Origin: Gammaproteobacteria bacterium | GTDB lineage: Bacteria > Pseudomonadota > Gammaproteobacteria > Eutrophobiales > Eutrophobiaceae | Length of the DNA stretch: 64,000 nucleotides | Reading direction: 5' to 3' | Assembly (NCBI GenBank): GCA_965221335.1 | Contig: CBDCSC010000006.1 | Coordinates: 199,570-263,569, forward strand | In this document: positions 1,026 to 44,355 of the stretch, piece by piece | Layout of the letters: every line of letters begins with the position of its first letter | How positions within the stretch are numbered: the first letter of the stretch is position 1 | The notes under the pieces: model-generated | Seen by the model: the letters and a program-made list of their open reading frames with translations, nothing else | Told to the model about the DNA's origin: nothing | Database searches by the model: none | Translations under genes and position numbers: made by a program

Positions 1026-1060
1026 TCCGTACCGGATGAAAAACTTGGGAGATCACAGAG

Positions 1061-2782: not shown

Positions 2783-2805
2783 GCGCCGAATTAAAGCTAT
2801 AGAGA

Positions 2806-2872
2806 GCAAAACAACAATCGCATTTTTTTTGCGAGCTCTGACTAGCACAGGATGAACTTGTCAGAGCTTCCT
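2806..2872. repeat. Partial copy (modules 4-5) of the composite element
   Basis: GCAAAACAACAATCGCATTTTTTTTGC followed by GAGCTCTGAC...GTCAGAGCTTCC, between hyuB (pair 1) and hyuA (pair 2). Confidence 0.7.
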
Positions 2873-2888
2873 TAAGAGGAGAAGGTTA

Positions 2889-6655: not shown

Positions 6656-6693
6656 TAAGGAGAAAATTATTACAATCATCCGAAATTTATACA

Positions 6694-6718
6694 AAAATTA
6701 AGTTGAAAGAGTACTAGA
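6694..6718. repeat. 25-nt sequence AAAATTAAGTTGAAAGAGTACTAGA, repeated exactly in inverted orientation at 54662-54686
   Basis: I compared the two copies base by base. Copy 1 sits just upstream of the TonB-receptor SD. Copy 2 begins 2 nt upstream of the dmpP stop codon and covers it. Confidence 0.8.
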
Positions 6719-6728
6719 GGGGGAGAGC

Positions 6729-8870: not shown

Positions 8871-8931
8871 TCGGGTCTGACGTACATCGGCGTTCACAAG
8901 TGTAATATCAACACCCGCGCGGAAACGGGGC

Positions 8932-10962: not shown

Positions 10963-10974
10963 CCGGAGAGAATA

Positions 10975-12693: not shown

Positions 12694-12729
12694 GGTCAGA
12701 CTACGCCAACCTGACCCGCCGCTGTCACA

Positions 12730-13980
12730 ATGCTGGGCCGATCCTATTCTTTTCCGAAGATTGTTTACCATGCGCTTTGGGGACATAAGCGCTGGAAGCC
12801 GGCCTGGCGTACGCCGGAGCCGAAGAAATCCTATGATGTAATCATTATCGGCGGCGGCGGGCATGGACTTGCCACGGCCTATTACCTGGCTAAAAAGCAC
12901 GGTGTCTCAAATATCGCGGTACTGGAACGCGGTTGGATCGGGGGTGGCAACAGCGGTCGCAATACCCAGGTGACCCGGTCGAACTATTTCTATCCGGAGA
13001 GCGCCGCTTTTTTTGAGCATTCGCTGAAATTGTATGAAACCATGAGCCGGGACCTGAATATCAATGTGATGTTCAGCCAGCGCGGGGTGCTGAATCTTGC
13101 CCATAGCGATCATGATATGGAGATGTTGACGCGCTGGACCAATGCGATCCAGCTTAACGGTATCGATTCCGAGATGCTCACAGCGCAGCAAATTAAGGAG
13201 CTCGAGCCGCTCATGGACATTAATGCGCGTTTTCCTGTGGCCGGTGGATTTATACAGTGGCGCGGTGGTATCTCGCGGCACGATGCAGTCAACTGGGGTT
13301 ACGCACGCGCCGCCGACGCCCTGGGTGTGGATATTATCCAGAACTGTACCGTGACCGGCTTGAAAATCAGCCGCGGCATGATTACCGGCGTTAATACTTC
13401 ACTGGGAGATATTTCGGCGGAAAAAGTACATGTCACGGTAGCCGGCCACACCAGTGTGCTGGCGAAAATGGCGGGTATCCGCCTGCCGTTGACCAGCATG
13501 GCGTTACAGGCCATGGTATCAGAGCCGATTAAACCGGCGCTTAACCTGGTGACCGTGTCCGGCGCGATACACATGTATGTGAGCCAGTCCGATCGCGGCG
13601 AGATAGTCCTGGGCGCCGGCGCCGACATATATAATTCCTATGCCCAGCGCGGCAGCTACGATAACATCGAATCCTGTATCGCGGCATTCCTGACCCTGTA
13701 TCCCCGTTTCAGCCGCTTGAAACTCATGCGCCAGTGGGCCGGTATCGTGGATATCACGCCGGATACCAGCCCCATTATGGGTATGACTCCCGTGCAAAAC
13801 CTGTATATCAACTGTGGCTGGGGGACCGGTGGTTACAAGGCCATACCGGCCAGCGGTGACACCATGGCTTATACCATCGTTAAAGACCAGCCGCACGCGC
13901 TGATTACGCCATTCTCCCTGGATCGTTTCCAAACCGGCGCGCTGGTGGATGAATCGGCGGCGGCAGGCGTCGCGCATTAA
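12730..13980 (+). CDS. soxB: Sarcosine oxidase (heterotetrameric), beta subunit
   Basis: 416 aa. The N terminus reads ...W..PEPKKSYDVIIIGGGGHGLATAYYLAKKHG..N.AVLE.GW.GGGN.GRNT, which is typical of SoxB. It is followed by soxD, soxA and soxG in the canonical order. Confidence 0.93.
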   Translation: MLGRSYSFPKIVYHALWGHKRWKPAWRTPEPKKSYDVIIIGGGGHGLATAYYLAKKHGVSNIAVLERGWIGGGNSGRNTQVTRSNYFYPESAAFFEHSLKLYETMSRDLNINVMFSQRGVLNLAHSDHDMEMLTRWTNAIQLNGIDSEMLTAQQIKELEPLMDINARFPVAGGFIQWRGGISRHDAVNWGYARAADALGVDIIQNCTVTGLKISRGMITGVNTSLGDISAEKVHVTVAGHTSVLAKMAGIRLPLTSMALQAMVSEPIKPALNLVTVSGAIHMYVSQSDRGEIVLGAGADIYNSYAQRGSYDNIESCIAAFLTLYPRFSRLKLMRQWAGIVDITPDTSPIMGMTPVQNLYINCGWGTGGYKAIPASGDTMAYTIVKDQPHALITPFSLDRFQTGALVDESAAAGVAH

Positions 13981-14006
13981 ACCGGATAGACCGCGAGTCA
14001 GGCGCA

Positions 14007-14300
14007 ATGCTGCGAATCTCCTGCCCAATTTGTGGTGAACGCGACGAAAATGAGTTTGTGTTCGGCGGCCAGGCTCATATCGCCCGGCCTGAACCGGCGG
14101 AGCAGGCATCTGACCGCGAGTGGGCTGAATATCTTTTTTTCCGGGACAACCCCAAAGGCGTGCATTTCGAACGCTGGCAACACCGCTACGGCTGCCGGCA
14201 GTGGTTCAATGTTGCCCGTCATACCGTAAGCCATGAGCTCCTGGCCGTGTATCGTCTCGATGAAGCGCCTCCGGAGATAGGCCGGGAAGAAACGGTATGA
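14007..14300 (+). CDS. soxD: Sarcosine oxidase delta subunit
   Basis: 97 aa. It has the zinc-ribbon-like start MLRISCPICGERDENEF that is typical of SoxD. Its stop overlaps the soxA start (ATGA). Confidence 0.9.
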   Translation: MLRISCPICGERDENEFVFGGQAHIARPEPAEQASDREWAEYLFFRDNPKGVHFERWQHRYGCRQWFNVARHTVSHELLAVYRLDEAPPEIGREETV

Positions 14301-17260
14301 ATAACACTCAACCGATGCGGCTTGCAACAGGCGGCAGCATAGACCGTGAAAAACCGTTGTCATTCACGTTCGATGGCAAACAATACAGCGGCTTCAAAGG
14401 GGATACCCTGGCATCGGCATTACTGGCAAACGGGGTGCGCGTGGTGGGACGCAGTTTCAAGTATCATCGTCCCCGGGGGATTCTCGCTGCCGGCGCTGAG
14501 GAGTGCAACGCACTGGTGACTGTGGGGCAGGGCGGCCTGGAGGAACCCAATATCCGTGCGACCTTACAACCATTGTATGATGGCTTGACGGCGCGTAGCC
14601 AGAACTGCTGGCCCGGCGTAAAGTTCGATATTGGCCGCAGCCTTGATTACCTGCATTTTCTCTGGCCTGCCGGGTTTTACAACAAGACGTTTATCTGGCC
14701 TCACTGGCGCTGGTACGAGGGGTTTATCCGGCGCTTGTCGGGCCTGGGCAAGCTGCCGCCCGATGCAGACCCGGATCACTATATACAGCATAATGTTCAT
14801 TGTGATGTCCTGGTCGTAGGCGCCGGACCTGCCGGGCTGAGCGCCGCGCTGGCAGCCAGTGAGCAGGGGTCCAAGGTCGTTCTTATTGAACAGGACAGCG
14901 TCCCGGGCGGCAGCCTGCTCTGGAGTGGAGAGAGCATTAACGGAACGCAGGCAAATACGTGGCTGCAAGACAGTGTGCGCGTCTTACGGCAACGGGACAA
15001 CGTTACTTTGTTGACCAATACCACGGCCTCAGCCTGGTTTGACCATCGTATGGTGATTGCGAGCGAGATGCTGTGTGACCGGCGCAGCGCAGCGGAGAGC
15101 AAAGGGCCGCGGCAGCGGCTGTGGAAGGTCCATGCACGCGCGACGGTACTCGCCACAGGCGCTATTGAGCAGCCACTGGTGTTCGCCAATAACGACCGTC
15201 CCGGCATCATGCTGGCAAGCGCCGCGCAACAGTATTGTAACCGCTACGCGGTGGCGACCGGGAGACGCATAGCCATAGCGACCAACAACGACAGCGCATA
15301 TGGCGCTGTCCGGGCGCTGAGGAACGCAGGTATTGATGTGGTTGCGATGATCGATTCACGGCAACAGCTCACAGAAAAAAGTGCACGGTTGATACAGGCT
15401 CAAGGCATGACGGTATTTCATAACGCGCTGGCGCTGGATAGCCGCGGCGATAAAGGTGTACGCAGCGTAGCCGTTGCCAGGCGGGGCAGTACGCAAACGC
15501 TGGCGACGTTACAGTGTGACTGTGTCGCGATGGCCGGAGGCTGGCAGCCGGCTGTTCATCTCTTTACCCAGGCGCGCGGCAGGTTGCGCTATGATGCCGC
15601 GCTGGGGGCGTTCATGCCGGATCAGGCTCCCGCCCATATGCACGTAGCAGGCATGGTGGCCGGCGCGCTGACCCTGGATAACGCACTGGAGCAGGGCCGG
15701 GACGCCGGTCTCGCGGCCGTTGGTGACGAGCTTCAGGGGCGTGGCCGGACGCGCCGGAAGCACGCCGGCGCGCTGCATATTGAACGCATCGGCTGTGAGC
15801 ATCGCATAGGTCGTCAGTGGATTGATTTTCAGTATGACGTGACCTTACAGGACATCGATATCGCAACGGCTGAGAACTATACCTCTGTTGAACACATGAA
15901 ACGATATACTACCGCAGGCATGGCCGTGGACCAGGGCAAGACCGCCAACCTGAACGCGTTACTGGCGCTGGCGCAACGCACCGGACGCACGCCGGACGAG
16001 GTGGGCACCACCACTTTTCGTCCATTTTACCTGCCGGTAACCCTGGGTGCGCTGGCCGGGCGCAACAGGGGTGATTTCTATGCTCCGGTGCGGCACAGCC
16101 CGCTGTTTTACTGCCACCAACAGGCAAATGCCCTGTTTGATGATTACGGTGGCTGGCGCCGCCCCCGGGTTTACCTGCGCAAAGGTGAAAACGAACAACA
16201 AGCCGTTGCCAGGGAGGCCGTGGCCGCACGTACTTCGGTTGTGATCTTTGACGGTTCGCCGTTGGGCAAATTCGAAGTATCCGGCTCGGATGCCGCCGAA
16301 TTTCTGCACCGCGTTTACATCAATAACGTTACGTCATTGAAAACGGGCCGCGCCCGTTACGGCCTGATGCTGAATGAAAACGGCATTGTTATCGACGACG
16401 GCATTTTCGCCCGGATTTCCGCCAACGGATACCTGGTACACACCACCAGCGGCGGGGCTGACCGGATCCATGCCTGGATGGAAGCGCTGTTGCAGGGCGA
16501 CTGGCCGAACCTGGACGTGATCCTGACCCCTGTTACCAGCCAATGGGCAAACATAGCCGTATCCGGTCCGCGGTCGAGAGAACTGGTGGAACGGCTGGAA
16601 ACCGGTATCGATCTCGGCAATAACGGTATGCCTCACCTGTCCGTTATGGCCGGAACAATCGGCGATATACCGCTACGCGTGCTAAGAGCCGGTTATACCG
16701 GTGAGTTGTGTTATGAACTCAACGTTCCCGCCGACCGCGGAGCAGCCTTGTGGAACCGGCTGTTGGAACGGGGAGATGACCTGGACCTGATGCCGATCGG
16801 AATCGAGACGCTGACGGTGCTGAGAATCGAGAAAGGCTATCTGCATATCGGCAGTGATACTGACGGTGCGAGCATGCCGCGGGATATCGGTTGGGGCCAT
16901 GTGACTGACAATAAACAGGGTGAATTTCTTGGTAAGCGCTCCCTGCTGCGTCCCTTTAATACACGTGACGGGCGTCTGGAATTCGTTGGTCTCACACCCG
17001 TGCGGGAAGGGGGTGAGCTGGTTGCCGGCGCGCATGTGATTGGCGTGCAATACACAAAAGCGCCGGCGCCCACCCAGGGCTACGTGACTTCCGCGTGTTA
17101 CAGCCCGAACCTGAAGCGCTACGTGGGGCTCGGACTGGTTCAGGATGGCAGGAGTCGGCTGGATGAAACAGTGCACTTGTTTGATAACGGCAAGGTGTAT
17201 CCCGCGCGTATTTCCCGGCCTGCCGCCTGGGACCCGCAAGGAGACAGGTTGCATGTCTGA
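14297..17260 (+). CDS. soxA: Sarcosine oxidase alpha subunit
   Basis: 987 aa. It has an N-terminal 2Fe-2S-like/SoxA fold (F.FDG....G..GDTLASALLANG), the NAD/FAD Rossmann motif VLVVGAGPAGLSAA, and a C-terminal GcvT-like folate-binding domain. Confidence 0.93.
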   Translation: MNNTQPMRLATGGSIDREKPLSFTFDGKQYSGFKGDTLASALLANGVRVVGRSFKYHRPRGILAAGAEECNALVTVGQGGLEEPNIRATLQPLYDGLTARSQNCWPGVKFDIGRSLDYLHFLWPAGFYNKTFIWPHWRWYEGFIRRLSGLGKLPPDADPDHYIQHNVHCDVLVVGAGPAGLSAALAASEQGSKVVLIEQDSVPGGSLLWSGESINGTQANTWLQDSVRVLRQRDNVTLLTNTTASAWFDHRMVIASEMLCDRRSAAESKGPRQRLWKVHARATVLATGAIEQPLVFANNDRPGIMLASAAQQYCNRYAVATGRRIAIATNNDSAYGAVRALRNAGIDVVAMIDSRQQLTEKSARLIQAQGMTVFHNALALDSRGDKGVRSVAVARRGSTQTLATLQCDCVAMAGGWQPAVHLFTQARGRLRYDAALGAFMPDQAPAHMHVAGMVAGALTLDNALEQGRDAGLAAVGDELQGRGRTRRKHAGALHIERIGCEHRIGRQWIDFQYDVTLQDIDIATAENYTSVEHMKRYTTAGMAVDQGKTANLNALLALAQRTGRTPDEVGTTTFRPFYLPVTLGALAGRNRGDFYAPVRHSPLFYCHQQANALFDDYGGWRRPRVYLRKGENEQQAVAREAVAARTSVVIFDGSPLGKFEVSGSDAAEFLHRVYINNVTSLKTGRARYGLMLNENGIVIDDGIFARISANGYLVHTTSGGADRIHAWMEALLQGDWPNLDVILTPVTSQWANIAVSGPRSRELVERLETGIDLGNNGMPHLSVMAGTIGDIPLRVLRAGYTGELCYELNVPADRGAALWNRLLERGDDLDLMPIGIETLTVLRIEKGYLHIGSDTDGASMPRDIGWGHVTDNKQGEFLGKRSLLRPFNTRDGRLEFVGLTPVREGGELVAGAHVIGVQYTKAPAPTQGYVTSACYSPNLKRYVGLGLVQDGRSRLDETVHLFDNGKVYPARISRPAAWDPQGDRLHV

Positions 17261-17813
17261 ACTGAATCCGTGTTACGCATTGCAGGGCAGTGATGGACAG
17301 GCGCTGGTTTTGCAGACGGATCGCCTGGTACTGCAGGCGATCAACAATGTTCGCAAGCTGCGCTTGCAAGCCCGGCCGGACACGGAGATAAACCCGGCGC
17401 CGCTTGAAGCGTTACTGGGCATGACATTACCGCAAAACCCGCGGGAAAAGGTCAACCATGAGCCGGCAGCCTACTGGCTGGCCCCCAATGACTGGCTGCT
17501 GCTCGACCCGGCGCCGGCCGGCGGCAATATCAGCAATGTATTGCGGGAAGCAGCCGGTGGCGCCACGTGCGTTGTCACCGATGTGAGTGATGCCTGGAGC
17601 ATCATAGAGATTTCCGGCGCGGATGCCGCGGCAAAATTGGCGGAAGGCTGCTCGGTAGACCTTGATGACGATGCATTCCCGGTTGGCCGGTATGCCTTGA
17701 CCCGGTTGCAGCACCTGTCAGTAATCATACACAGACTGGACGACGGGTCAAAATTCCACCTCCTGGTTGACCGCAACCTGGCGTGTTTTCTCTGGGATTG
17801 GTTACGCATGTGA
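17253..17813 (+). CDS. soxG: Sarcosine oxidase gamma subunit
   Basis: The ATG at 17253 overlaps the soxA stop (ATGTCTGA). Size and position fit SoxG. The ORF-track start at 17145 would add 36 aa that lie inside soxA. Confidence 0.8.
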   Translation: MSELNPCYALQGSDGQALVLQTDRLVLQAINNVRKLRLQARPDTEINPAPLEALLGMTLPQNPREKVNHEPAAYWLAPNDWLLLDPAPAGGNISNVLREAAGGATCVVTDVSDAWSIIEISGADAAAKLAEGCSVDLDDDAFPVGRYALTRLQHLSVIIHRLDDGSKFHLLVDRNLACFLWDWLRM

Positions 17814-20083
17814 ACCGGGACAACGCACCGGTTTTCAAGGACCTGGTCCTGGTTGGTGGAGGCCACGCCCATGTCACGGTATTGAAAAAGTTTGCAATGA
17901 AACCGGTGCCCGGGGTGCGCATTACCCTGGTTTGCCGGGACTTGCAGGCGCCTTACTCCGGCATGTTGCCGGGATATATAGCCGGGCATTACCTATTTGA
18001 CGACGCGCATATCGACCTGGTTCCGCTGTGCCGATTTGCCCGCGCCCGGTTTTTCCACGATGAAGTCATCGGTCTGGATACGGATAACAGGAAACTGATC
18101 TGCCGCAGCCGGCCGTACCTGGGTTATGATATTTTGTCGATTAACGTCGGCTCAGCGCCCGATATCGCCGCAGTCCCCGGCGCTGACGGCAAGGTTATTC
18201 CCGTAAAACCCATTGATGGTTTCGTCGGTAACTGGCGCAAACTGTGTGCGCGAATGTTGCAGCGTCAAAATGGCGCGCGCATCGGTATCGTCGGCGGCGG
18301 GGCAGGCGGCGTCGAACTGGCGCTTGCAGTTCAATACCGGCTGAAAGCATTACTGGCCGGGAAATGGCCGGATAATACAAGTCCTGAATTTCACTTGTTT
18401 ACCGATGCCGGCGAGGTCCTTACAACACATAACCGCAATGTGCGCGCCAAGTTCCGGCGCGTGCTTAACGAGCGGAACATTCACGTACATACAGGGCACG
18501 AGGTGACCGAAGTCAGGGCCGGTGTGCTGCAATGTGCAAACGGCGCTACTTTTCAACTGGATGAGATCCTGTGGGTGACCAGGGCCCGCGCCCAGGACTG
18601 GCCGGGGCAGGCCGGATTGGATGTTGATGAACAGGGCTTTATCAAAGTCAACAATACTCTCGAGTCCGTCTCGCATCCCGGCATCTTTGCGGCCGGCGAT
18701 ATCGCGCATATGATTAACCATCCCCGGCCCAAGTCCGGTGTATTTGCCGTGCGCCAGGGAGCGCCGCTGTCACTGAATCTCCGCAACAGGTTGTTAAATC
18801 GCTCCCTCAAACCCTATTTTCCCCAGAGAGAGTTTCTGAGCCTGATTTCCACGGGTGATCAGTATGCCATCGCCTCACGCTCCTGGTGGGCGCTGGAAGG
18901 GCGCTGGGTGTGGCGCTGGAAGGACTGGATTGATCGCCGCTTCATGCGCAAGTACAACCGGCTTCCGGAAATGAAGGAGCCGGCACGGCGGGATATTCCC
19001 CGCGGCGTAGCCGATAAGGATGCGATCAGGGAGATATCCGCCATTGCGATGCGCTGTGGCGGGTGTGGCGCCAAGGTGGGCGCGACAGTGCTTGAAAATG
19101 CATTGGCTGGCCTTGAGCCGATCTCCCGGGACGATGTGCTTATCGGGTTGCACGAACCTGATGACGCCGCCGTGGCGAGTGTGCCGGCAGGCAAGGCAAT
19201 AGTGCATACGGTCGATGCCTTCCGTTCGTTTATCGATGATCCGTACATCTTCGGACAGGTGGCGGCCAATCATGCGCTGAGCGATTTATTTGCGATGGGC
19301 GCACAGCCGCAAACGGCGCTGGCAATCGTGACCGTTCCCTACGCGGACGAAAAGAAGCTTGAAGAGCTGCTGTCGCACCTGCTGCAAGGCGCTCTCAAGG
19401 CGCTGAACGGGGCTGGCGCGGCGCTGGTAGGCGGGCATACCTCCGAAGGCGAGGAACTGTCCCTGGGATTCGCCGTGAACGGGTTGGTTGATCGGGAGCA
19501 GATCCTGCGCAAACGCGGCCTGCGTGCCGGCGACAGAATAGTGCTGACCAAGCCCATCGGCACCGGGACACTGTTTGCCGCCGATATGCGGCACAAGGCT
19601 AAAGGCGCTTGGATTGCGGCCGCGCTGGACTGTATGCTGCAATCAAACCGGGAAGCCGCCAAGCGCCTGTTTGACCATGGCGCCGCGGCCTGTACGGACG
19701 TCACCGGATTCGGCCTGTTGGGACACCTGGTGGAAATGATCAAGCCATCTGGCGTCGATGTCGAGATTGACCTGGGCGCGATTCCGTGTCTTGATGGCGC
19801 TGAAGAGACGATTGCAGCCGGCATCTTCAGTTCCCTGCAGCCCCAGAACCTGCGACTGCGCCGGGCGATACGTGACGCTGAGAACGTATCAAAAGATACG
19901 CGCTACCCGTTGATATTTGACCCGCAAACATCCGGCGGACTGCTTGCCGGCGTTCCTGCAGAACAGGCCGAAGCCTGTGTTACCGCGCTACGTGAATTGG
20001 GCTATGCCCAAACTGCAATTATCGGCAGGGTATTGCCTGAGAGTAATAGGCTGGAACCGGTTAGGCTCGTCAGGAAGTCATAG
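17783..20083 (+). CDS. selD: Fusion protein: FAD/NAD(P)-dependent pyridine nucleotide-disulfide oxidoreductase (N-terminal) + selenide,water dikinase SelD (C-terminal). It is the candidate selenophosphate supplier (SenC role) for the adjacent senB/senA.
   Basis: The N-terminal domain has the Rossmann motifs DLVLVGGGHAHV and IGIVGGGAGGVELA plus FAAGDIA. The C-terminal domain has the SelD active-site loop MRCGGCGAKVG (the Cys form, not Sec) and AIR-synthase-like blocks (DDAAV, GGHT.EG). The start is uncertain: GTG at 17783, or GTG at 17810 overlapping the soxG stop as GTGA. Confidence 0.88.
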   Translation: MFSLGLVTHVNRDNAPVFKDLVLVGGGHAHVTVLKKFAMKPVPGVRITLVCRDLQAPYSGMLPGYIAGHYLFDDAHIDLVPLCRFARARFFHDEVIGLDTDNRKLICRSRPYLGYDILSINVGSAPDIAAVPGADGKVIPVKPIDGFVGNWRKLCARMLQRQNGARIGIVGGGAGGVELALAVQYRLKALLAGKWPDNTSPEFHLFTDAGEVLTTHNRNVRAKFRRVLNERNIHVHTGHEVTEVRAGVLQCANGATFQLDEILWVTRARAQDWPGQAGLDVDEQGFIKVNNTLESVSHPGIFAAGDIAHMINHPRPKSGVFAVRQGAPLSLNLRNRLLNRSLKPYFPQREFLSLISTGDQYAIASRSWWALEGRWVWRWKDWIDRRFMRKYNRLPEMKEPARRDIPRGVADKDAIREISAIAMRCGGCGAKVGATVLENALAGLEPISRDDVLIGLHEPDDAAVASVPAGKAIVHTVDAFRSFIDDPYIFGQVAANHALSDLFAMGAQPQTALAIVTVPYADEKKLEELLSHLLQGALKALNGAGAALVGGHTSEGEELSLGFAVNGLVDREQILRKRGLRAGDRIVLTKPIGTGTLFAADMRHKAKGAWIAAALDCMLQSNREAAKRLFDHGAAACTDVTGFGLLGHLVEMIKPSGVDVEIDLGAIPCLDGAEETIAAGIFSSLQPQNLRLRRAIRDAENVSKDTRYPLIFDPQTSGGLLAGVPAEQAEACVTALRELGYAQTAIIGRVLPESNRLEPVRLVRKS

Positions 20084-21028
20084 ATTATCCAGTAGGGCCT
20101 GCCACAACTTGCTTTCGCGTTCCGGGGTGAACAAGTGTTTGCGTTTGCTTCCGTGCTCGCGCAGATGTTGCAGGAATTCTTGCTCGTTTTCCGCCCGCTG
20201 TAACAACGCGCATAATGTTTCGGTGTCTGTTACCGGATAATAACCGGGATAATCGTCGCCGAGCAGGCCGGTATTGCCGTCGATCGCGGAGGCAATCACG
20301 GGAACGCCTGCGACCAGGGCTTCGGAAATGACATTCGCGCCGCCTTCCATGGTTGAGCTGTGAACCAGTGCATGGGTCTTCAGAAACTGCTCTCTGACCT
20401 GCCAGGCGCTGACCTCGCCGCGCCAATGATAACGGGGATTGATTGCCATCTCCGCGCGCGCCCGTGCAGCCCATTCAGCATTTTGCGCGTTGCCAAGATG
20501 GATTACCCGCAGGCGTGACCGTTGTGCAAGATTGCGCGCGGCGTAAGCGGTTCTGAACGGGTCTTTCTCTGCGCGTAAATGGCCGATAACGCAGACGTCG
20601 AACGTGCGTACTGAGGGACGGCGCGGGCGCGCCGGCGGCGTTGCCGATTGATGGATAACATGCAGCTTGTCGTGGAATGATGCCGGGAGCGCCCGGTGTG
20701 CAAGGTCATGCAGGCAGACCAGTGCATCGGCGGTCTGCATCGAACCCAGGGTTTCCTTCGCGTGACTGTATTGGAAGCGATAAATATCCGTTCCGGTCAG
20801 CGCAACCACCAGCGGGCGGGTCGGATAGCGCGTACGAAAGCGCGCGATCGAAGTGGCGCTACGCCAGGCATGCAATGCCACCATCATATCTCCAGGCATC
20901 CCATCCCAGTCGGATTGCACTGTTACCCTGTGGCCAATACCTCGCAGCAGTCGCGCCCAACGCGTTGCGGTCACGCGATTGCCCGTCTTCGATTGTTTTG
21001 TTGCGGGCGTGATCAGGATAATTTTCAT
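20078..21028 (-). CDS. senB: GT-B glycosyltransferase of the SelD-associated family (selenosugar synthase SenB-like)
   Basis: 316 aa. The N terminus MKIILITPA...KTGNRVTATRWA..LR..GH.V and HAWRSA match my memory of the SenB (TIGR04348-type) family. The C-terminal EGGANVISEALVAGVPVIAS block is the GT-B donor-binding motif. The gene sits between a SelD fusion and an EgtB-like gene. Confidence 0.75.
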   Translation of the reverse strand: MKIILITPATKQSKTGNRVTATRWARLLRGIGHRVTVQSDWDGMPGDMMVALHAWRSATSIARFRTRYPTRPLVVALTGTDIYRFQYSHAKETLGSMQTADALVCLHDLAHRALPASFHDKLHVIHQSATPPARPRRPSVRTFDVCVIGHLRAEKDPFRTAYAARNLAQRSRLRVIHLGNAQNAEWAARARAEMAINPRYHWRGEVSAWQVREQFLKTHALVHSSTMEGGANVISEALVAGVPVIASAIDGNTGLLGDDYPGYYPVTDTETLCALLQRAENEQEFLQHLREHGSKRKHLFTPERESKLWQALLDNL

Positions 21029-21143
21029 CCGCTACGCACTGTCTGATGGCATTATTGTCAACAGGTTATCATAACTCCTCGGCAGTAACTCTCTATCCTG
21101 CGATGAAGCGAATTGGTGACTGCTTCGGCTTGAGCTACAATAA

Positions 21144-22454
21144 ATGGCGATGCAACAGCTAAGCGGCAAATATTTAAAGGAAATCATGCTGGATGCCCAT
21201 CAGCGTACGCTGGAGTTGATCGCCGGCCTGGATGACGCGCAGTTGATGGGGCCAAAGTTGCCCATCGTCAATCCGTTGCGCTGGGAAATAGGGCATGTTG
21301 CCTGGTTTCATGAAAAGTTTATCTTACGCGATTTGTATGATTGCCCGCCGTTGCTGGCAAATGGTGATTCCCTCTATGATTCCATCGCCATCGATCACGA
21401 TCAGCGCTGGGATTTACCGTTGTTGAGCATGCGGGAGACGCTGGACTATATAGGGAACGTCCTGGGCCACTGCCTGGCGCGGTTGCCGGATGGCGCGGCA
21501 GACCCGGAACAGAGTTATATCTACCGGTTTTCCACCTACCACGAGGACATGCATACCGAGGCCTATTGCTGGTCGCGCCAGACCCTGGCCTACCCGCAGC
21601 CCGCTTTTGCCGCTGCGGGCAAACCGGAGGATGCAGGCGCCGGGGCCTGGTCTGGGGATGTGGCGATCCCTGGCGGGGTGTTTTCTCCGGGCGCCGTGGA
21701 AGCGACGCCGTTTGTGTTTGATAACGAGAAATGGGCGCACAAGACAACCCTGGAGCCGTTTCATATTGCAAAAGCGCCGGTGACCAATGCCGAGTTCATG
21801 GAATTTGTCGCTGCCGGGGGCTACCTGTGCCGGGAGTTCTGGAGTGATGCAGGCTGGTCCTGGCGCGAGCAAGCTGACGCCCGGCATCCCGTATACTGGC
21901 AGAACGGCGGCAAGGATGCGTGGCGGCTGAGGTGGTTTGATGACGTCGGGGAGCTGCCGCCGCATCAGCCTGTTATCCATGTCAACTGGCATGAGGCCAA
22001 TGCGTACTGCCGTTGGGCAGGCAGGCGTTTGCCGACGGAAGCGGAGTGGGAAGCGGCGGCGTTGGGCGAACCTGCCGATGACCACAGCAGGCTTGCTTTG
22101 AAGAAACGCAGTTACCCGTGGGGGGAACAACCTCCTGGTGAACTTCATGCCAATCTTGATGGCCGGGCGCTGGGCTGTGTCGATGTCGCAGCCCTGCCGG
22201 CGGGGGACAGCGCGTTCGGCTGCCGGCAGATGCTAGGCAACGTATGGGAATGGACTGCATCCACGTTTGCGCCGTTCCCGGGCTTTTCGCCGGATGCCTA
22301 CAAAGAATATTCCGAACCGCTGTTTTATCACACGAAAGTATTGAAGGGTGGCGCCTGGGCTACCCGGAGCCGGATGATAACAGGCCGCTACCGTAACTTT
22401 TTCACGCCTGACCGGCGCGATGTGCTCGCGGGTTTCAGAACCTGCGCTCTTTAG
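21144..22454 (+). CDS. senA: EgtB-like C-S/C-Se bond-forming synthase (DinB-like domain + FGE-sulfatase/SUMF1 domain); selenoneine synthase SenA-like by context
   Basis: 436 aa. It has three-His iron-site candidates (EIGHVAWFHE; YHEDMHTE) and FGE-domain blocks (HVNWHEANAYCRWAGRRLPTEAEWE, GNVWEWT, KGGAW). It is divergent from senB and lies 2 nt upstream of selA. Confidence 0.78.
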   Translation: MAMQQLSGKYLKEIMLDAHQRTLELIAGLDDAQLMGPKLPIVNPLRWEIGHVAWFHEKFILRDLYDCPPLLANGDSLYDSIAIDHDQRWDLPLLSMRETLDYIGNVLGHCLARLPDGAADPEQSYIYRFSTYHEDMHTEAYCWSRQTLAYPQPAFAAAGKPEDAGAGAWSGDVAIPGGVFSPGAVEATPFVFDNEKWAHKTTLEPFHIAKAPVTNAEFMEFVAAGGYLCREFWSDAGWSWREQADARHPVYWQNGGKDAWRLRWFDDVGELPPHQPVIHVNWHEANAYCRWAGRRLPTEAEWEAAALGEPADDHSRLALKKRSYPWGEQPPGELHANLDGRALGCVDVAALPAGDSAFGCRQMLGNVWEWTASTFAPFPGFSPDAYKEYSEPLFYHTKVLKGGAWATRSRMITGRYRNFFTPDRRDVLAGFRTCAL

Positions 22455-22456
22455 CA

Positions 22457-23917
22457 ATGGGCATAAATATCCGGAGTTTGAGACGCCTGCCATCCGTGGA
22501 TCGCGTGCTGCGGGAAGCGTCTGATTTGGTCGAGCGTTGGGGACATGAGCGGGTGGCTGTTGCGATACGCAATACGCTAGAGCAGGTGCGCGCAAACATG
22601 GAAGAATTCGCTGCTCTCGACAAGTCAGCGCTATTGGAGCAAGTCGTTTCCATACTGGCGTGCAGGCTGGAACAGGAGTCCGCGGGCAGCCTGGTCAGTG
22701 TGTTCAACCTGACCGGCACCGTCCTGCATACCAACCTGGGCCGCGCGGTACTGCCGCGCGCGGCGCTGGACAACGCGCTGGCCTTGGCCCAGACACCGGT
22801 AAACCTGGAATTTGACCTGGAGAGCGGCACGCGCGGAGATCGCGATGAGCATATCGAACCACTGATCTGCGAACTCTGCGGGGTGGAAGCGGCAACCGTG
22901 GTGAACAACAATGCCGCCGCAGTATTACTGGTATTGAATACTTTGGCTAAAGGCCGGGAGGTTCCGGTCTCACGCGGCGAACTGGTCGAGATTGGCGGTT
23001 CTTTTCGCATCCCGGATATCATGCAGGGTTCAGGCTGTGCGCTGGTTGAGGTCGGTACGACCAACCGTACCCATTTGCAGGACTACCACAATGCGATCAA
23101 TGACAGGACGGCGTTGTTGTTAAAAGTTCATGCCAGTAACTATCAGATCCGCGGGTTTACCCATAGTGTTCCCGAGAAAGAGTTGGCTCAACTGGCCCAC
23201 CAGCGCGGGTTGCCGCTGGTTGTCGACCTGGGTAGCGGTAATCTGATCGACTTTGCCGCCTTCAACCTGCCTGATGAGCCTACGGTCGCGCAAGCGCTGA
23301 AGAGTGGCGCCGATATTGTAACCTTCAGTGGAGACAAGCTGTTGGGCGGTCCCCAATGCGGCATAATCGCCGGCGAACACGCATTGATCGCCAGGATGAA
23401 GAACAATCCGCTGAAACGCGCGCTAAGGGTTGACAAGATAACCCTGGCTGTCCTGTCAGAGGTGTTGAAACTCTATCAAAACCCCGCGCGGCTTGCACAG
23501 GATCTGCCGGCTCTGGCCGCGCTGACACGTCCACCGGATGCTATCCGCGCCCAGGCTGAGCGGATCGCCCCTGCGCTCGCGGACGCGCTGGCGCCGCGTT
23601 ATCAAGTCGAGGTCTGCGAATGTCACAGCCAGGTTGGCAGCGGTGCGCTGCCGATTGATACACTGGCAAGTTACGGGTTAAGGATCAGCGCGGTGGAAGA
23701 GTCGGATGAAGCGATCAGACTGCTGGCGGCATCCATGCGCCGTCTGCCCACACCGGTCATAGGCCGGATCAACCAACGCGCTTATTTCCTGGATCTGCGC
23801 TGCCTGGACCGGGAGGAAGAGTTTATTTCCCAGTTACGGAGTACTGGTACTGGTCTCCCGGATCATCTTCCGGAACATGCGCACGCCGACAAGTTTGAGC
23901 ATCAGTTTTTGGAATAG
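22457..23917 (+). CDS. selA: L-seryl-tRNA(Sec) selenium transferase
   Basis: 486 aa. Blocks: LPSVDRVL, VFNLTGTVLHTNLGRA, NLEFDLE.G.RG.R, VVNNNAAAVLL.LN, SRGELVEIGGSFRIPDIM, and the PLP-lysine block FSGDKLLGGPQ. Confidence 0.93.
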   Translation: MGINIRSLRRLPSVDRVLREASDLVERWGHERVAVAIRNTLEQVRANMEEFAALDKSALLEQVVSILACRLEQESAGSLVSVFNLTGTVLHTNLGRAVLPRAALDNALALAQTPVNLEFDLESGTRGDRDEHIEPLICELCGVEAATVVNNNAAAVLLVLNTLAKGREVPVSRGELVEIGGSFRIPDIMQGSGCALVEVGTTNRTHLQDYHNAINDRTALLLKVHASNYQIRGFTHSVPEKELAQLAHQRGLPLVVDLGSGNLIDFAAFNLPDEPTVAQALKSGADIVTFSGDKLLGGPQCGIIAGEHALIARMKNNPLKRALRVDKITLAVLSEVLKLYQNPARLAQDLPALAALTRPPDAIRAQAERIAPALADALAPRYQVEVCECHSQVGSGALPIDTLASYGLRISAVEESDEAIRLLAASMRRLPTPVIGRINQRAYFLDLRCLDREEEFISQLRSTGTGLPDHLPEHAHADKFEHQFLE

Positions 23918-25039
23918 GGATGGGGGCGTTGAGTTGGCTGCGGAGACATATCGGTTTATGCCGAGTTGCTCGCACAGGTCTTCGGACATGACCTGCATCG
24001 GCCCGTCCGACGGGATGCCGGTCGCATCGGCGATGCGCACCATGCGCTGAAAGTTCGATACCACCCCCGCAGCGTCGATCATCGCCGCCGAACCCATCTT
24101 ATCCGACAAAGTCTGGCGCGCGCGGTCCAGTTCAAAGCCGTCGACGCCCATGCAGGCATTCGCGAACTGCAGCAGTTCCTGGGAATCCGGTATACCCTTG
24201 ATCTCGGTGCAGGCGGGATCAGTGAGGCCATCGAAGTCGATGGACCCGCCTGTCAGCCTGACGCTCTCACGGAGCATCACCACATGTGAGGAAGTTCAGT
24301 AAAAACAGCCGTTCAGCGCAGATACCCGGGCGGCCACAATCTCGGTCTGGGGACGGGTCAGGGTTCCCTGCGGCGGCCTGGTCATATTCCAGACCTCGTG
24401 CACATCCAGGTAATGCGCGTCGGACTGCTCAAGCAGGTTGCGGACTTCGTCAGGAACCAGGCTCATGGCTCTGATCACATAGCCGCGCATGTCGCCTTCC
24501 CACAGGTCCGCATCCGGCCCGCTATCGACCCGCGTCGGCAGTATCGGCACCCAGGCGCCCTCGTGGGATACATTGGCCGGACGGTAGCGGCTGGGTTCGC
24601 CCGGTTGCGGATCCGGCAGTTCATTCAAAGGCAGGCCCAGGCAACGGCAGAACTCGTCGATGGAGAACACCGAGACCAGTGTGCCGATGATCTCAATATA
24701 TTTTTCTTCGCTGAGACCCTGTTGCATGATCCCGTCGAACCAGGATTTCGTCAGGCGCGCCGAGTCGGTGGTGACCCGGTGGATCACTTCGATTACGACA
24801 TCCGGAAGATCGGTGACGGTGTCATGGGCGCCGTCAACCGTGTAAGGTGACAACGATTCCTTGCGCCGGCTGCACAGTCTGCACTGTAGCGCCTGGCGTA
24901 TTTCCCTGGCAATGTCAACACGCTCAGCGCCGGTGAACCAGGTACCCGGCGCGGCTAGCCGCTGCCAGTAACGATTGTGGCAGGCGGCAAAGTCTGCGCG
25001 TACCGGCCAGGGGGCGTTGCTGTAGTTGATCTCAGTCAC
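23834..25039 (-). CDS. AhpD-like (carboxymuconolactone decarboxylase family) two-domain protein with an in-frame UGA at 24296-24298, predicted to encode selenocysteine; the read-through product is 401 aa
   Basis: ORF-track entries 24296..25039 and 23834..24283 are in the same frame and separated only by TGA plus 4 sense codons. Reading through gives ...SALNGCFY-U-TSSHVVML..., i.e. C-x-x-U-x-x-x-H, which matches the AhpD/CMD C-x-x-C-x-x-x-H redox motif. selA and selD are adjacent. Confidence 0.75.
24266..24290 (-). promoter_or_regulatory. Candidate bacterial SECIS-like hairpin, starting at the ninth nucleotide counted from the U of the UGA codon
   Basis: On the mRNA, CUCAC (nt 9-13 counted from the U of UGA) can pair with GUGAG (nt 29-33). 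The apical region contains GGUGAUG. This was folded by eye only. Confidence 0.35.
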
Positions 25040-25190
25040 TGCCCACTATTCTCAATAATTTTGCAGGTAACGTCAATGCAATTTTGCCGGTAAGTGATAC
25101 TATTCCTGCCCTTGCTAGGATATTGCCCGGAGTGAACTGGTGTAATATCGAGGCAATTTTAGGCAATACTTGAAGACGGGATATTCAATC

Positions 25191-28100
25191 ATGTGGCAAT
25201 TCTGGATCGATCGCGGCGGCACGTTTACCGATATAGTCGCCAAATCTCCCGAAGGCCGGTTACACAGCCACAAGCTGCTCTCCGAAAACCCCGGGCATTA
25301 CCGGGATGCGGCCGTGCAGGGGATTCGTGACATTCTCGGCCTTGCGCCCGGCGCCGCCATTCCTCCGAACACTATTGAACAGGTGAAGATGGGCACCACT
25401 GTGGCTACCAATGCACTGCTGGAGCGTAACGGCGAGCGTACCGTGTTTGTGACCACCAGGGGTTTTGCGGACGCGCTGCGTATCGGCTACCAGGATCGCC
25501 CGCGCCTGTTTGATCGCCATATCGTGCTGCCGGCGCTGTTATATGAGCGCGTAATAGAAGTGGATGAGCGTGTCGATGCCGAGGGCAAGGTGTTGTGCCC
25601 TCTCAATCAAGAGTGGGTCAGGGCCGACTTGAAGTCGGTATTCGATACCGGGATCCGATCAGTAGCGGTTGCCTTCATGCATGGTTATCGCCAACGCGGC
25701 CATGAACGCAAGGTCGGTGAAATTTGCCGGCAGCTCGGTTTTACCCAGGTTTCCCTGAGTCATGAAGTCAGTCCCCTGGTCAAACTGGTTGCACGTGGTG
25801 ACACCACCGTTGTCGACGCCTACCTGTCACCTATCCTGCGCCGCTACGTGGAGCAGGTTGCCGATGAGCTGGGCATTGAGGATGGCAGCGGCACGCGCCT
25901 GCTGTTCATGCAGTCCAACGGCGGGCTCACCGATGCCCACCTGTTCCGGGGCAAGGATGCGATCTTCTCCGGCCCTGCCGGCGGTGTGGTGGGCATGACC
26001 CGGACTGCCGAAATGAGCGGGCTGCACAAGTTGATCGGTTTCGATATGGGAGGCACTTCAACCGACGTGAGCCACTATGACGGCGAGTATGAGCGCAGTT
26101 TTGAAACACAGGTGGCCGGCGTGCGCATGCGCGCGCCGATGATGAATATCCATACAGTGGCCGCGGGCGGAGGTTCGATACTTCGCTATGATGGCGCCCG
26201 TTTCAGGGTTGGGCCCGAATCCGCCGGCGCCGATCCCGGCCCGGCCTGTTACCGGCGCGGCGGGCCGCTGACCGTAACCGATTGCAATGTGATGCTGGGA
26301 AAAATCCAGCCGCAGCATTTCCCGGCCATCTTCGGCGCCACAGGTAATGAACAACCGGATCGGGAAACAGTGGAACGGAAGTTTATCGACCTTGCGCAGA
26401 GAGTTTCCCGCACCCGGCGAAAAACCGTAAGCGCTGAAGATGTGGCGCAGGGCTTTTTGCGCATTGCCGTGGAAAACATGGCCAATGCGATTAAAAAAAT
26501 TTCTCTGCAACGCGGTTATGACGTCACCGAATACACGCTTAATTGCTTTGGCAGCGCCGCCGGCCAGCATGCTTGCGCGGTCGCGGACTCGCTGGGTATG
26601 GACCGGATTTTTCTGCATCCGCTTGCCGGGGTGTTATCCGCCTACGGCATGGGACTCGCCGAACTGCGGGTACTGCGCGAGGCGCAAGTAGGTATTGATT
26701 TTAACGGTCCCGACGTGGAAAAGGAAATTGCGATACACAGCCGGCCGCTGGCTGTCTCCGCCCGTGCCGCGCTGCGGCAGCAAGGGGTGAATGCACAGAA
26801 TATCTCCATTATTGTCAGGGTTCACATGCGCTACCAGGGCACCGACACCAGCCTGGAAGTTGACGCCGGCAGCGCCACACAAATGTTGTCTGATTTTGAA
26901 GCCGCACACCGCCGCCGCTTCGGCTTTGTGGCGCGCGAGCGGGGCCTGGTCATTGAGTCCCTGGCGGTGGAGGCTGTCGGCGAAACGGATTTCGGGATCG
27001 ACCCGGAGACGGACTCGCCCATGCCGGAACAGGACCCGCCTGTACACGAGCGGGTCGGCATGTACTCTGATGGGCAATGGCGGGACATACCCCTGTACCT
27101 GCGCGCGCACCTGCTCCCTGAACAGGTGCTTGAGGGGCCTGCCATCATCATCGAACCTACGGGTACGATCGTAGTCGAGCAGGGTTGGCGCGGCACGCTG
27201 AACCGCCGTGGCCACCTGGTGCTCGAACGTCACGCCAAATGTGACAACCGGGAGACTGTCGGCACCGGCGCCGATCCGGTGATGCTCGAGGTGTTCAATA
27301 ACCTGTTCATGTCGATCGCCGAGCAGATGGGCGTTACCCTGCAGAACACCGCGTACTCCGTGAATATCAAGGAACGCCTGGATTTTTCCTGTGCGCTGTT
27401 CAATGCCGAAGGTAAATTGGTGGCCAACGCCCCGCACATACCCGTGCACCTGGGTTCGATGGGTGAATCCGTACAGCGCGTCATTGATGCCAACAAGGGC
27501 CATATCGAGCCCGGTAATGTATATGTACTCAATGCCCCGTATGCGGGCGGCACCCACCTGCCTGATGTAACCGTGATTACGCCGGTGTTTGATGATCGGG
27601 GTGAGAACATCCTGTTTTACCTGGCTTCACGCGGACACCATGCCGACATAGGCGGGCGCACACCCGGCTCGGCCCCGCCGGACAGCGCCCATATCGACGA
27701 GGAGGGAGTGCTGATTGACAACTTCCTGCTGGTGGAGAACGGCCGGTTGCGTGAGCGGGAGATACGGAAATTGCTGGGATCGGGCAAGTACCCTTGCCGC
27801 AATATCGACCAGAACCTGGCCGACCTGGCAGCGCAGGTAGCCGCCAACGAGACCGGTCTTAACGAATTGCGCCGAATAGTCGGACATTACGGCATCGATG
27901 TAGTGGATGCCTATATGCGGCATGTGCAGGACAACGCCGAGGAGTCGGTGCGGCGGGTACTGCAAACATTGCAGGATGGAGAATTCGACTACCGGATGGA
28001 CCAGGGTTGCGTGATCCGCGTTCGCTTGTCCGTTGACCGCGAAAACCGAGAGGCGAGTATTGATTTTACCGGCACCTCCATGCAGAACCCGACGAACTAC

Positions 28101-28799
28101 AACGCTCCGAGCGCGGTCTGCCGGGCCGCGATCCTGTACGTGTTACGCACGCTGGTCGACGATGACATCCCGTTGAACGAAGGTTGCCTCAAACCGATCA
28201 GACTGATCCTGCCTGAGCGCTCAATGCTCGCGCCCGAATATCCGGCGGCAGTAATGGCCGGCAATATCGAAGTGTCCCAGGCGCTTGCGAACGCGCTGTA
28301 TGGCGCCCTGGGGACCCTGGCCGCATCACAGGGCACGATGAACAATATCTTCTACGGTAACGAGCGGCACCAGAATTACGATACCGTCTGCGGCGGCACG
28401 GGCGCCGGACCGCAGCATCCCGGTACGGATGCCGTACACAGTCATATGACCAATACCCGTATGACTGATCCGGAGATACTGGAATTGCGATTTCCCGTGC
28501 GCTTGGAGGAGTTTTCCATCCGCCGGGGTTCGGGTGGCGCCGGCAGGCATTACGGGGGAAACGGTATGCTGCGCAAATTGCGCTTCCTGGAGCCTATGAC
28601 CGTCACCACGTTGAGTTCCCACAGAGTGGTGCCACCTTTCGGAGTGGCGGGAGGAAAACCAGGCCGGCGCGGTAATAACTATGTGGAGCGGGCTGACGGT
28701 GAATATGTACAACTCAGGGGCGATGACGAGATCGAAGTCAATACCGGCGATATGTTCGTCATGGAAACACCGGGAGGAGGGGGCTTTGGCAAGGTCTGA
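25191..28799 (+). CDS. 5-oxoprolinase (ATP-hydrolysing), fused HyuA-HyuB type
   Basis: About 1200 aa. The N terminus [17 protein letters not shown], plus DMGGTSTDV and [18 protein letters not shown], mark the A-type half. The B-type half has FSCALF...G.L.ANAPH.PVHLGSM and ends GGGGFGK. The ORF-track start at 25170 (TTG) is an alternative. Confidence 0.9.
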
Positions 28800-43344: not shown

Positions 43345-44355
43345 TTGGAGAGGGGTATGGATCAAGAAAAACTTGCAGCTTTGCGTGACAAGTACCAAGA
43401 TCAGCCTTATGACAAGGTAGACGACCCGGACCATGCCAAGGCCTTGCCCGGGGCCACGGATATGCTGACCGGCATCGCCACCTTGTGCGACGCGCCTTAC
43501 CGGGAAACCCCGGACGGACTTGATATTGCTTTGATCGGCGTGCCGTTTGATGCCGGCGTGGTGCACCGGACCGGCGCTCGCTTTGGGCCGCGCTCGATCC
43601 GGAACATCTCGATGGCGGTGGGGCCGTTCAATCATCAGACCCTGGTAAACCCATTCACCCTGTGCGCGATCGCGGATGTCGGCGATGTGCCCCTGCATGG
43701 TTTCAGCCTGGAAGAAGGCATCCGCACCATTGAGCAATATTTCCACAAGATCGTGGACGCGGGAGTCATTCCGGTATCAGCCGGCGGCGACCACTCCATC
43801 ACTTATCCGATCATGAAGGCAGTGGGCCGGGATGAGCCGTTGGGCATGATCCACATCGACGCTCACTGTGACACCATGGGAGCGCTGGAAGACCATAAGT
43901 TCCACCACGGTGGCCCGTTTCGCCACGCGGTTCTGGACGGAGTGCTGGACCCGGATCGTTGCGTGCAGGTCGGCATCCGGGGCGCGGCAGAGGTATTCTG
44001 GGAATTTTCTTATGACTCAGGGATGACGGTCATACCCATTCAGGACTTTCATGCAATGGGAGTGCCGGCAGTCATCAAAAAGACGCGGGAAGTACTGGGT
44101 GAGGGTCCTGTTTATGTCAGTTTCGATGTGGATGGCCTGGACCCGGTCTATGCCCCCGGCACCGGGACGCCGGAAGTCGGCGGTCTGAGCACTGCTGATG
44201 CGATACAGCTTCTCAGGGGCTTACGGGGGTTGCAGTTCGTGGGCGGCGACCTGGTAGAAGTCGCGCCGCAGTACGATGCAACCACCAACACGTCGCAGGT
44301 CGGCAAACAGATGCTGTTTGAAATCCTGTGCCTGGTGGCCGAGAGCAAAACCTAA
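43345..44355 (+). CDS. Ureohydrolase (arginase-fold) family: agmatinase / guanidino-acid hydrolase
   Basis: It has the Mn-binding blocks GGDHSITYP, IHIDAHCDT and SFDVDGLDP. Confidence 0.88.
   Translation: MERGMDQEKLAALRDKYQDQPYDKVDDPDHAKALPGATDMLTGIATLCDAPYRETPDGLDIALIGVPFDAGVVHRTGARFGPRSIRNISMAVGPFNHQTLVNPFTLCAIADVGDVPLHGFSLEEGIRTIEQYFHKIVDAGVIPVSAGGDHSITYPIMKAVGRDEPLGMIHIDAHCDTMGALEDHKFHHGGPFRHAVLDGVLDPDRCVQVGIRGAAEVFWEFSYDSGMTVIPIQDFHAMGVPAVIKKTREVLGEGPVYVSFDVDGLDPVYAPGTGTPEVGGLSTADAIQLLRGLRGLQFVGGDLVEVAPQYDATTNTSQVGKQMLFEILCLVAESKT

Follow-up and report, generated by a model that had tools for sequence, protein, structure and literature searches.

The locus described here lies in a 64-kb stretch of DNA (the window; contig CBDCSC010000006.1, positions 199,570-263,569) from the assembly GCA_965221335.1 of a Gammaproteobacteria bacterium of the Eutrophobiaceae. 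It comprises a gene for a fused selenophosphate synthetase (the selD fusion), senB, senA, selA and, convergent with selA, a gene for an AhpD-related selenoprotein (Table 1). We identified the genes with NCBIfam equivalog models, applying their curated cutoffs, and described domain architectures with Pfam. The locus is very probably a cluster for selenoneine biosynthesis (sen cluster), of the common type with a fused SelD, set within a small selenium island. An earlier note on this DNA had pointed to the first four of these genes and had assigned the SelD fusion, SenB and SenA to the sen pathway. Both proposals hold: the open reading frame (ORF) map and all four NCBIfam equivalog models, including those for SenB (TIGR04348), SenA and SelD, place the four genes with scores above cutoff, and the curated models, the active-site motif and the comparison with reference structures agree on the pathway. 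The five gene identities, the catalytic and acceptor-determining residues, the UGA codon, the order of the genes and the distribution of that order are established here from sequence evidence.

The SelD fusion and SenB

The fusion protein matched TIGR03169 (Nterm_to_SelD) over residues 20-391 at 496.9 bits (cutoff 310) and the SelD equivalog TIGR00476 over residues 423-728 at 305 bits (cutoff 125), with a Pfam architecture of Pyr_redox_2, AIRS and AIRS_C. Its N-terminal domain (residues ~20-391) is a FAD/NAD(P)H pyridine-nucleotide-disulfide oxidoreductase resembling type-II NADH dehydrogenases (NDH-2), which are also its nearest structures (9pxk, 4nwz), and its C-terminal domain (~423-755) is a selenophosphate synthetase. 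The segment GGC428GAK431 aligns with AGC17GCK20 of E. coli SelD (3u0o), so the active-site residues Cys17 and Lys20 are retained. We rejected the look-alike family TIGR04369 ("fusion_not_SelD"), which scored 490 bits, below its cutoff of 700. NADH-dehydrogenase-like::SelD proteins were described as the commonest SelD fusion, found in genomes with the selenocysteine (Sec) machinery and predicted to retain SelD activity (PMC4561486). The window protein shares with these previously reported fusions (Zhang et al. 2008; Mariotti et al. 2015, PMC4561486) the domain order, the Cys-type SelD and the Sec-using host.

Two start codons can be considered for the fusion. The longest ORF begins with GTG at 17783; GTG at 17810, which shares a GTGA with the stop codon of soxG, is the likely start. 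With this start, the fusion would be translationally coupled to the upstream soxBDAG-like operon (12730-17813). This soxB-soxD-soxA-soxG-like operon (+ strand), of the heterotetrameric sarcosine-oxidase type, leads directly into the selD fusion, with the junction at 17808-17813.

SenB matched TIGR04348 at 417.1 bits (cutoff 300) and Pfam Glycos_transf_1, and its best matches in the Protein Data Bank were the structures of Variovorax paradoxus SenB (8jjn/8fbx, 185 bits). Residues N17/T20/K155/E228/E236 correspond to N20/T23/K158/E231/E239 of the V. paradoxus enzyme, so that the catalytic lysine and the N20/T23/E231 sugar-selectivity triad are kept, together with the equivalents of R155, Q131, H58 and D86. 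The V. paradoxus sugar-pocket residues V157 and H235 are replaced by E and N in the window, the sugar-donor motif EGGAHV reading EGGANV. Of the 69 SenB sequences aligned, that of the window among them, 49 have this pair of exchanges, which is therefore a clade trait.

The stop codon of senB (20078-20080) adjoins that of the fusion (20081-20083), giving a 6-nt convergent overlap of the two ORFs. Such contact between senB and selD is the overlap criterion behind the original discovery of the sen cluster of V. paradoxus; the discovery paper, which started from selD-overlapping genes, retrieved 827 egtB-TIGR04348-selD cassettes (bioRxiv 10.1101/2022.04.13.486033). On its other side senB diverges from senA across a spacer that is ~85 nt longer than in most relatives of its clade. 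This spacer holds a single weak -35/-10-like match (minus strand, 21095-21068), the number of matches not exceeding chance, and the alignment of senB-senA intergenic regions from clade members, which range from ~30 to at least 115 nt, revealed no conserved operator-like palindrome.

The V. paradoxus senABC cluster (Kayrouz et al. 2022; bioRxiv 10.1101/2022.04.13.486033; 8k5i, 8jjn/8fbx) encodes the same three enzyme functions as the window, with an identical SenA motif, conserved K158 and N20/T23/E231 in SenB and, likewise, no egtD in the cluster. Unlike in V. paradoxus, SelD in the window carries an NDH-2-like flavoprotein domain as a fusion partner, and senB, encoded on the opposite strand, converges with selD and diverges from senA. 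The window SenA is 42% identical to that of V. paradoxus and is a long form, with ~54 extra residues (311-364), and selA follows directly after senA.

Table 1. Selenium-related genes and associated features of the window
Feature	Position	Strand	Length and remarks
NADH-dehydrogenase-like::SelD fusion (senC equivalent)	17783/17810-20083	+	766 aa from longest ORF; TIGR03169 and TIGR00476
senB, selenosugar synthase, GT-B Se-glycosyltransferase	20078-21028	-	316 aa; TIGR04348
senB/senA divergent intergenic region, presumed promoter region	21029-21143		115 nt
senA, selenoneine (selenoxide) synthase, non-heme-iron DinB and FGE-fold enzyme	21144-22454	+	436 aa; NF041186
selA, L-seryl-tRNA(Sec) selenium transferase	22457-23917	+	486 aa; TIGR00474
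AhpD-related CFYUT-motif selenoprotein gene	23834-25039	-	in-frame TGA 24296-24298; NF041238
Candidate SECIS (selenocysteine insertion sequence) hairpin, downstream of the UGA	24249-24291	-	8-bp apical stem, 5-nt loop at 24259-24279

SenA and its predicted acceptor

SenA matched NF041186 at 491.6 bits (cutoff 420), covering positions 5-382 of the 382-position model, with the Pfam domains DinB_2 and FGE-sulfatase. Three related enzyme families can be told apart by published 17-position composite motifs, which read xNEH--HRHxHYYN(F/Y)(F/Y)R for SenA, ...HYMQAYR for OvsA, and xSDH--RRHQHYYNWDR for type-I EgtB (EgtB-I); 1,514 sequences with the SenA motif were counted (PMC11030361). The hallmark of SenA is the exchange of the thiol-binding Arg87 and Asp416 of EgtB for His and Phe/Tyr (bioRxiv 10.1101/2022.04.13.486033).

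We compared the motifs in a MAFFT alignment with three references (V. paradoxus SenA, OvsA and EgtB-I), using 14 of the 17 positions (all but the first x and the two gap positions). The window protein has N43, E48, H51, H85, R88, H133, M136, H137, Y386, Y389, N418, F419, F420 and R424. This set corresponds to the published SenA motif and matches the crystallised V. paradoxus SenA at every position; OvsA and EgtB-I each depart from it. The thiol-binding Arg87 and Asp416 of EgtB (4x8b) are aligned with H85 and F420 of the window protein. A neighbour-joining tree with EgtB-I as its root places the protein inside a large clade of SenA-motif sequences, with OvsA and V. paradoxus SenA branching outside. 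The earlier note had read this EgtB-like protein as SenA and had asked where it stands relative to the sulfur EgtB enzymes: the NF041186 score, the composite motif and an EgtB model score below cutoff all bear out its identity as SenA, and the tree sets it in the SenA-motif clade.

The ranking of solved structures is less straightforward. The best score for the window SenA was obtained by the OvsA-YNF mutant (8ux5, 308.8 bits), followed by wild-type OvsA (8u41, 299.2 bits), EgtB-I (4x8b, 256.7 bits) and only then V. paradoxus SenA (8k5i/8ryz, ~223 bits); identity over aligned positions was 42%, 42% and 38% for V. paradoxus SenA, OvsA and EgtB-I, respectively. V. paradoxus SenA scores low in the pairwise comparison because it has no counterpart of residues ~311-364 of the window protein. 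We surveyed 80 species-representative genomes with a close SenA, searching 10-kb flanks with the window proteins by tblastn. The ~54-residue segment is present in the window SenA and in all 79 surveyed relatives with a full-length SenA, and is common to OvsA and EgtB-I.

This ranking raises the possibility that the enzyme is of the OvsA type and selenylates free histidine at C5, leading to 5-selenohistidine or ovoselenol and not to selenoneine. Indeed, OvsA is the top-scoring solved structure (299-309 bits, V. paradoxus SenA reaching 223 bits), and the host belongs to the Gammaproteobacteria. In addition, no egtD was found in the window (ORFs of at least 150 aa), and organisms with ovs genes mostly do without it. 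The ovs clusters of Halomonas utahensis and Marinobacter (PMC11030361; 8u41/8u42/8ux5) are also gammaproteobacterial and, like the window, combine a senB/selD cassette with a SenA-related selenoxide synthase. However, the OvsA residues M401, Q430 and A431 are Y389, N418 and F419 here, and replacing M401/Q430/A431 by Y/N/F is exactly what turns OvsA from a histidine-C5 enzyme into a hercynine-C2 selenoneine enzyme (PMC11030361). The difference is visible in the HMMER alignment, in which the window SenA reads ...daYkeYsepl... and ...ryrNFFtpdrr... where OvsA reads ...dmYpfMstlq... and ...tyrQAYhpdr..., and it is because of Y389/N418/F419 that the YNF mutant outscores wild-type OvsA. The composite motif also departs from the OvsA signature ...YMQAYR, no OvsM-type methyltransferase was found in the window (ORFs of at least 150 aa) or in the flanks of its relatives, and the NF041186 SenA model scored above cutoff. 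We therefore consider an OvsA-type activity very improbable.

Still less credible is that the enzyme is an ordinary sulfur EgtB (ergothioneine sulfoxide synthase) placed among selenium genes by coincidence. It does score 321.6 bits against the EgtB model TIGR03440, and EgtB-I of M. thermoresistibile (256.7 bits) ranks above V. paradoxus SenA, but the former score lies below the cutoff of 360, and the EgtB-I pattern S/D...R...Q...W/D has become N/E...H...M...F/F, a change at 6 of the 14 compared positions that includes both thiol-binding residues. Moreover, in 66 of the 80 species representatives senA forms a divergent pair with senB, which in most of these loci lies directly upstream on the other strand, and in many senA is found together with selD. 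On the active-site residues we rejected both OvsA and EgtB as identities of the senA product.

The window protein is therefore, as far as its residues indicate, a SenA of a "long-form" subclade. With the SenA motif present and the OvsA and EgtB motifs absent, hercynine is the predicted acceptor, which SenA is predicted to selenylate at C2 with a selenosugar. The acceptor, which the earlier note had left open, is thus indicated by the hercynine-type Y/N/F residues, as opposed to the histidine-type M/Q/A of OvsA.

SelA and the senA-selA junction

SelA matched TIGR00474 at 582.5 bits (cutoff 267.9) and carries the Pfam domains SelA (PF03841) and Se-cys_synth_N (PF12390), the latter tRNA-binding. 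It resembles the SelA of the canonical proteobacterial selAB operon in being a full-length TIGR00474 equivalog with an N-terminal tRNA-binding domain. Unlike in that operon, selA in the window follows senA and has no selB after it, and its 3' end overlaps the convergent selenoprotein gene.

Across the junction the sequence runs ...ctt TAG ca ATG..., placing the senA stop codon at 22452-22454 and the selA ATG at 22457 and confirming the 2-nt gap first noticed in the earlier note. The selA start has no recognisable Shine-Dalgarno sequence. Consensus scans of positions 17000-25400 found no terminator-like site between senA and selA, and across this region the counts of promoter and terminator matches were at or below those expected from shuffled sequences, so that beyond this absence they tell little about how the operons are organised. 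It had also been suggested that the sen genes and selA look co-transcribed; since senB lies on the minus strand, senA and selA are the only pair able to form one transcript, and for these two the suggestion survives, in that they probably share the same transcript.

An AhpD-related selenoprotein gene overlapping selA

A minus-strand ORF at 24296-25039 matched NF041238 (AhpD_rel_CFYUT) at 324.6 bits up to model position 238, and ended in ...NGCFY-TGA-TSSH. When the TGA was read through (with U scored as C) and the frame continued to the TAA at 23834, the product scored 474.3 bits over positions 1-356 of the 357-position model. The resulting gene is convergent with selA and overlaps its last 84 nt. 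The TGA and the coding sequence downstream of it are conserved in two related genomes, L001 and L034, and the AhpD-related CFYUT family is a listed prokaryotic selenoprotein family (PMC13188914). Ordinary ORF calling splits the gene in two (247 aa and 149 aa), and gene callers have made the same split in the related genomes L081, L082 and L086.

The candidate SECIS hairpin has a stem sequence identical in L001 and L034, and its folding energy was not better than that of shuffled sequences (z = 0.72). As this fold is weak evidence by itself, the selenoprotein call rests on the conservation of the TGA and on the full-length model match. The evidence for a selenoprotein in turn indicates that the organism decodes UGA as Sec, and that selA is part of a genuine Sec machinery. 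We also considered a split gene for a TonB-dependent receptor, adjacent to the selenoprotein gene in L082 (14103-16364, minus strand), as a second selenoprotein gene, and rejected it since its in-frame stop is TAG and not the Sec codon; this interrupted gene is probably a pseudogene or the result of a sequencing error.

Distribution and conservation of the gene order

The fusion-selD(+)/senB(-)/senA(+) arrangement was the commonest layout in the survey: 30 of the 80 loci contained both fusion domains and a minus-strand senB, others being truncated by contig ends. It spans Alpha- and Gammaproteobacteria as well as other phyla, and other lineages had co-directional senA and senB, or a stand-alone selD. 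By comparison, selA was located within 10 kb in 3 of the 80 species-representative loci and directly downstream of senA in a single one (L001, with 78% SenA identity) of the 70 loci with enough flanking sequence. The wiring of the cluster, which had been called unusual, is therefore the commonest as concerns the fusion, senB and senA, and rare only in having selA right after senA.

To the surveyed loci we added further members of the clade, obtained through exact-protein look-ups of the closest homologues (L086 was excluded from the junction alignment). Members of this clade (~76-97% SenA identity) have the sox genes, the fusion, senB, senA and selA in that order, and as a rule the gene for the AhpD-type selenoprotein comes next. 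The sen-selA order is intact in L081 (97% SenA identity), L082, L086 and L001; an amidase gene stands between senA and selA in L083, and a Snf2-helicase gene in L034, whose senA may be frameshifted; and in L084 and L085, at 71% SenA identity, the linkage of senA and selA is gone. The senA-selA spacer is 2 nt in the window only, ~55 nt in L001 and L082, and ~140 nt in L081. These comparisons qualify the tight junction that had been emphasised earlier: the direct adjacency of senA and selA is real and conserved, in the window's own clade only, but the tight coupling across 2 nt is a feature of this strain, the relatives having longer spacers or inserted genes.

Several features of individual relatives were seen along the way. 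The ~140-nt spacer of L081 (11312-11450) contains three short perfect inverted repeats (ACTCCCGC..GCGGGAGT, TCGCTCA..GAGCGA and TTCCCGT..ACGGGAA), and its difference from the window looks like an insertion of the REP (repetitive extragenic palindrome) or MITE (miniature inverted-repeat transposable element) type in L081, or else a deletion in the window strain. In L034, senA seems to be broken into two ORFs (319 and 121 aa) at 9998-11310, owing to a frameshift or an assembly error, and the gene between senA and selA (11512-15801) encodes a 1429-aa Snf2-family helicase. The sox genes also precede the fusion in L081, L001 and L086, with a luciferase-like gene between them in L083 and a transposase gene in L082. 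L082 further carries a PhoU_div and PHO4 (PiT-family) transporter pair between the selD fusion and senB (7029-8971), absent in the window, which may be a selenite/phosphate-type transporter.

A second grouping of this kind was found in L056, an alphaproteobacterial metagenome-assembled genome, in which (116-11290) selB-selA on the minus strand diverge from a putative selenate ABC transporter (TIGR04553, an ATPase and a PhnE-like permease), after which come the selD fusion, senB(-) and senA(+). L056 thus provides an independent case of a selenium island, bringing together genes for the Sec machinery, selenium uptake and selenoneine.

Other genes in the window

Among scanned ORFs of at least 150 aa in the 64-kb window we found no selB and no ovsM-type methyltransferase gene, as was the case for egtD. 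A scan for tRNA and tmRNA genes in the window, L001, L034 and L056 gave no match, so there is no selC nearby, and a scan of the whole window at the Rfam gathering thresholds was likewise without matches.

Hydantoinase/oxoprolinase (CapA/CapB-like) genes are unusually dense around the selenium genes (12-12693 and 25170-28799). Four CapA/CapB-like A/B pairs lie upstream, interrupted by a gene for a TonB-dependent receptor (6729-8870). Downstream, a single gene encodes a fused A-B protein (1209 aa). The scores of all these proteins fall far short of the cutoffs for caprolactamase and acetophenone carboxylase. Farther along the window are a pair of genes for a MadB-like AAA ATPase and a MadC-like VWA protein (44352-46620, minus strand), and a cluster encoding a multicomponent phenol hydroxylase, a ferredoxin reductase and a catechol 2,3-dioxygenase (50269-56098, plus strand), both unrelated to the sen cluster.

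Discussion

The sen gene set of the window is a standard one that has already been described, and it brings no new chemistry; its novelty is modest because the sen enzymes already have curated annotation models and published active-site criteria, with which the window proteins agree. By homology and by its conserved Cys and Lys, the SelD domain of the fusion would convert selenide and ATP to selenophosphate, with the NDH-2-like flavoprotein domain probably supplying reduced selenium to it by means of NAD(P)H. SenB, in which the catalytic lysine and the sugar-binding residues are conserved, would then combine selenium derived from selenophosphate with a UDP-sugar to form a selenosugar such as SeGlcNAc. 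Finally, SenA, with its full active-site motif, would join the selenosugar oxidatively to C2 of hercynine, and the selenoxide would collapse to selenoneine.

In this scheme, hercynine would have to be supplied through an egtD located outside the window. The discovery paper proposes such a source for clusters without a co-localised egtD, stating that the ergothioneine pathway probably provides the hercynine and that egtD is present in no more than a small subset of the clusters (bioRxiv 10.1101/2022.04.13.486033). Because so few sen clusters carry this gene, its absence from the window is expected. The earlier note's remark on the missing egtD thus stands as an observation, but the absence is not unusual for sen clusters.

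Several points weigh against reading the locus as a selenium island built on selenoneine synthesis. With egtD not visible in the window, the supply of hercynine is an assumption. Its SenA is the long form, which at 42% identity to V. paradoxus SenA and with ~54 additional residues has pairwise scores nearer to OvsA and EgtB-I, and the long-form subclade appears to have no biochemically characterised member in the literature consulted. As to Sec, neither selB nor a tRNA-Sec gene was found in the window (ORFs of at least 150 aa; tRNA scan). Finally, the tight senA-selA coupling is not conserved, there being ~140 nt with three hairpins in L081, ~55 nt in others, and insertions in two relatives.

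How much should be read into the position of selA? It reflects a lineage-specific gene order and not a new pathway. One selenophosphate pool, plausibly provided by the fused SelD, may feed both selenoneine and selenocysteine synthesis; the earlier note had likewise suggested a shared SelD. A stronger version of this idea is that the fusion is the only source of selenophosphate and that senA and selA form one selenium-responsive transcription unit, coupling the two pathways; we regard it as rather unlikely. It is quite possible, although we do not adopt this explanation, that the juxtaposition carries no regulatory or metabolic significance, the order being merely inherited within the clade, the 2-nt junction being a recent deletion, and Sec being made with a separate SelD whose gene lies elsewhere. 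This would fit the rarity of the arrangement (1 of 70 informative representatives with selA directly after senA, 3 of 80 with selA within 10 kb), the variable spacer within the clade (2, ~55 and ~140 nt), the amidase (L083) and Snf2 helicase (L034) genes inserted between senA and selA, and the loss of linkage at 71% SenA identity. On the other hand, the order fusion-senB-senA-selA, usually with the selenoprotein gene, is kept down to ~76-79% SenA identity in six relatives, and an independent grouping of selBA, a selenate transporter, the fusion and senBA exists in the alphaproteobacterial L056. In addition, NADH-dehydrogenase-like::SelD fusions have been reported in genomes with Sec machinery (PMC4561486), which fits, without proving, the use of one SelD for both pathways.

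If coupling between the two pathways were true, the cell would co-regulate and partition selenophosphate between selenoneine and Sec-tRNA, the latter as for the adjacent AhpD-like, peroxidase-type selenoprotein. The locus would then be a linked "selenium redox island", in which a selenol metabolite and a selenoprotein cooperate.

The comparative value of the locus is that the commonest sen layout uses the long-known NADH-dehydrogenase-like::SelD fusion, and that one small clade of uncultured Gammaproteobacteria joins this cluster to selA and a selenoprotein gene. The papers that described the fusion (Zhang 2008; Mariotti 2015, PMC4561486) antedate the sen pathway and make no link to selenoneine, whereas here, and in ~30 of the 80 species, the fusion is the SelD of the sen cluster. 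The analysis also brings to attention an abundant long-form SenA subclade whose sequences resemble OvsA more closely than they do the crystallised SenA. The locus offers a convenient natural system for asking how selenophosphate is divided between small-molecule and protein sinks, if selenoneine and selenocysteine are made with one and the same SelD, and what role the flavoprotein domain has.

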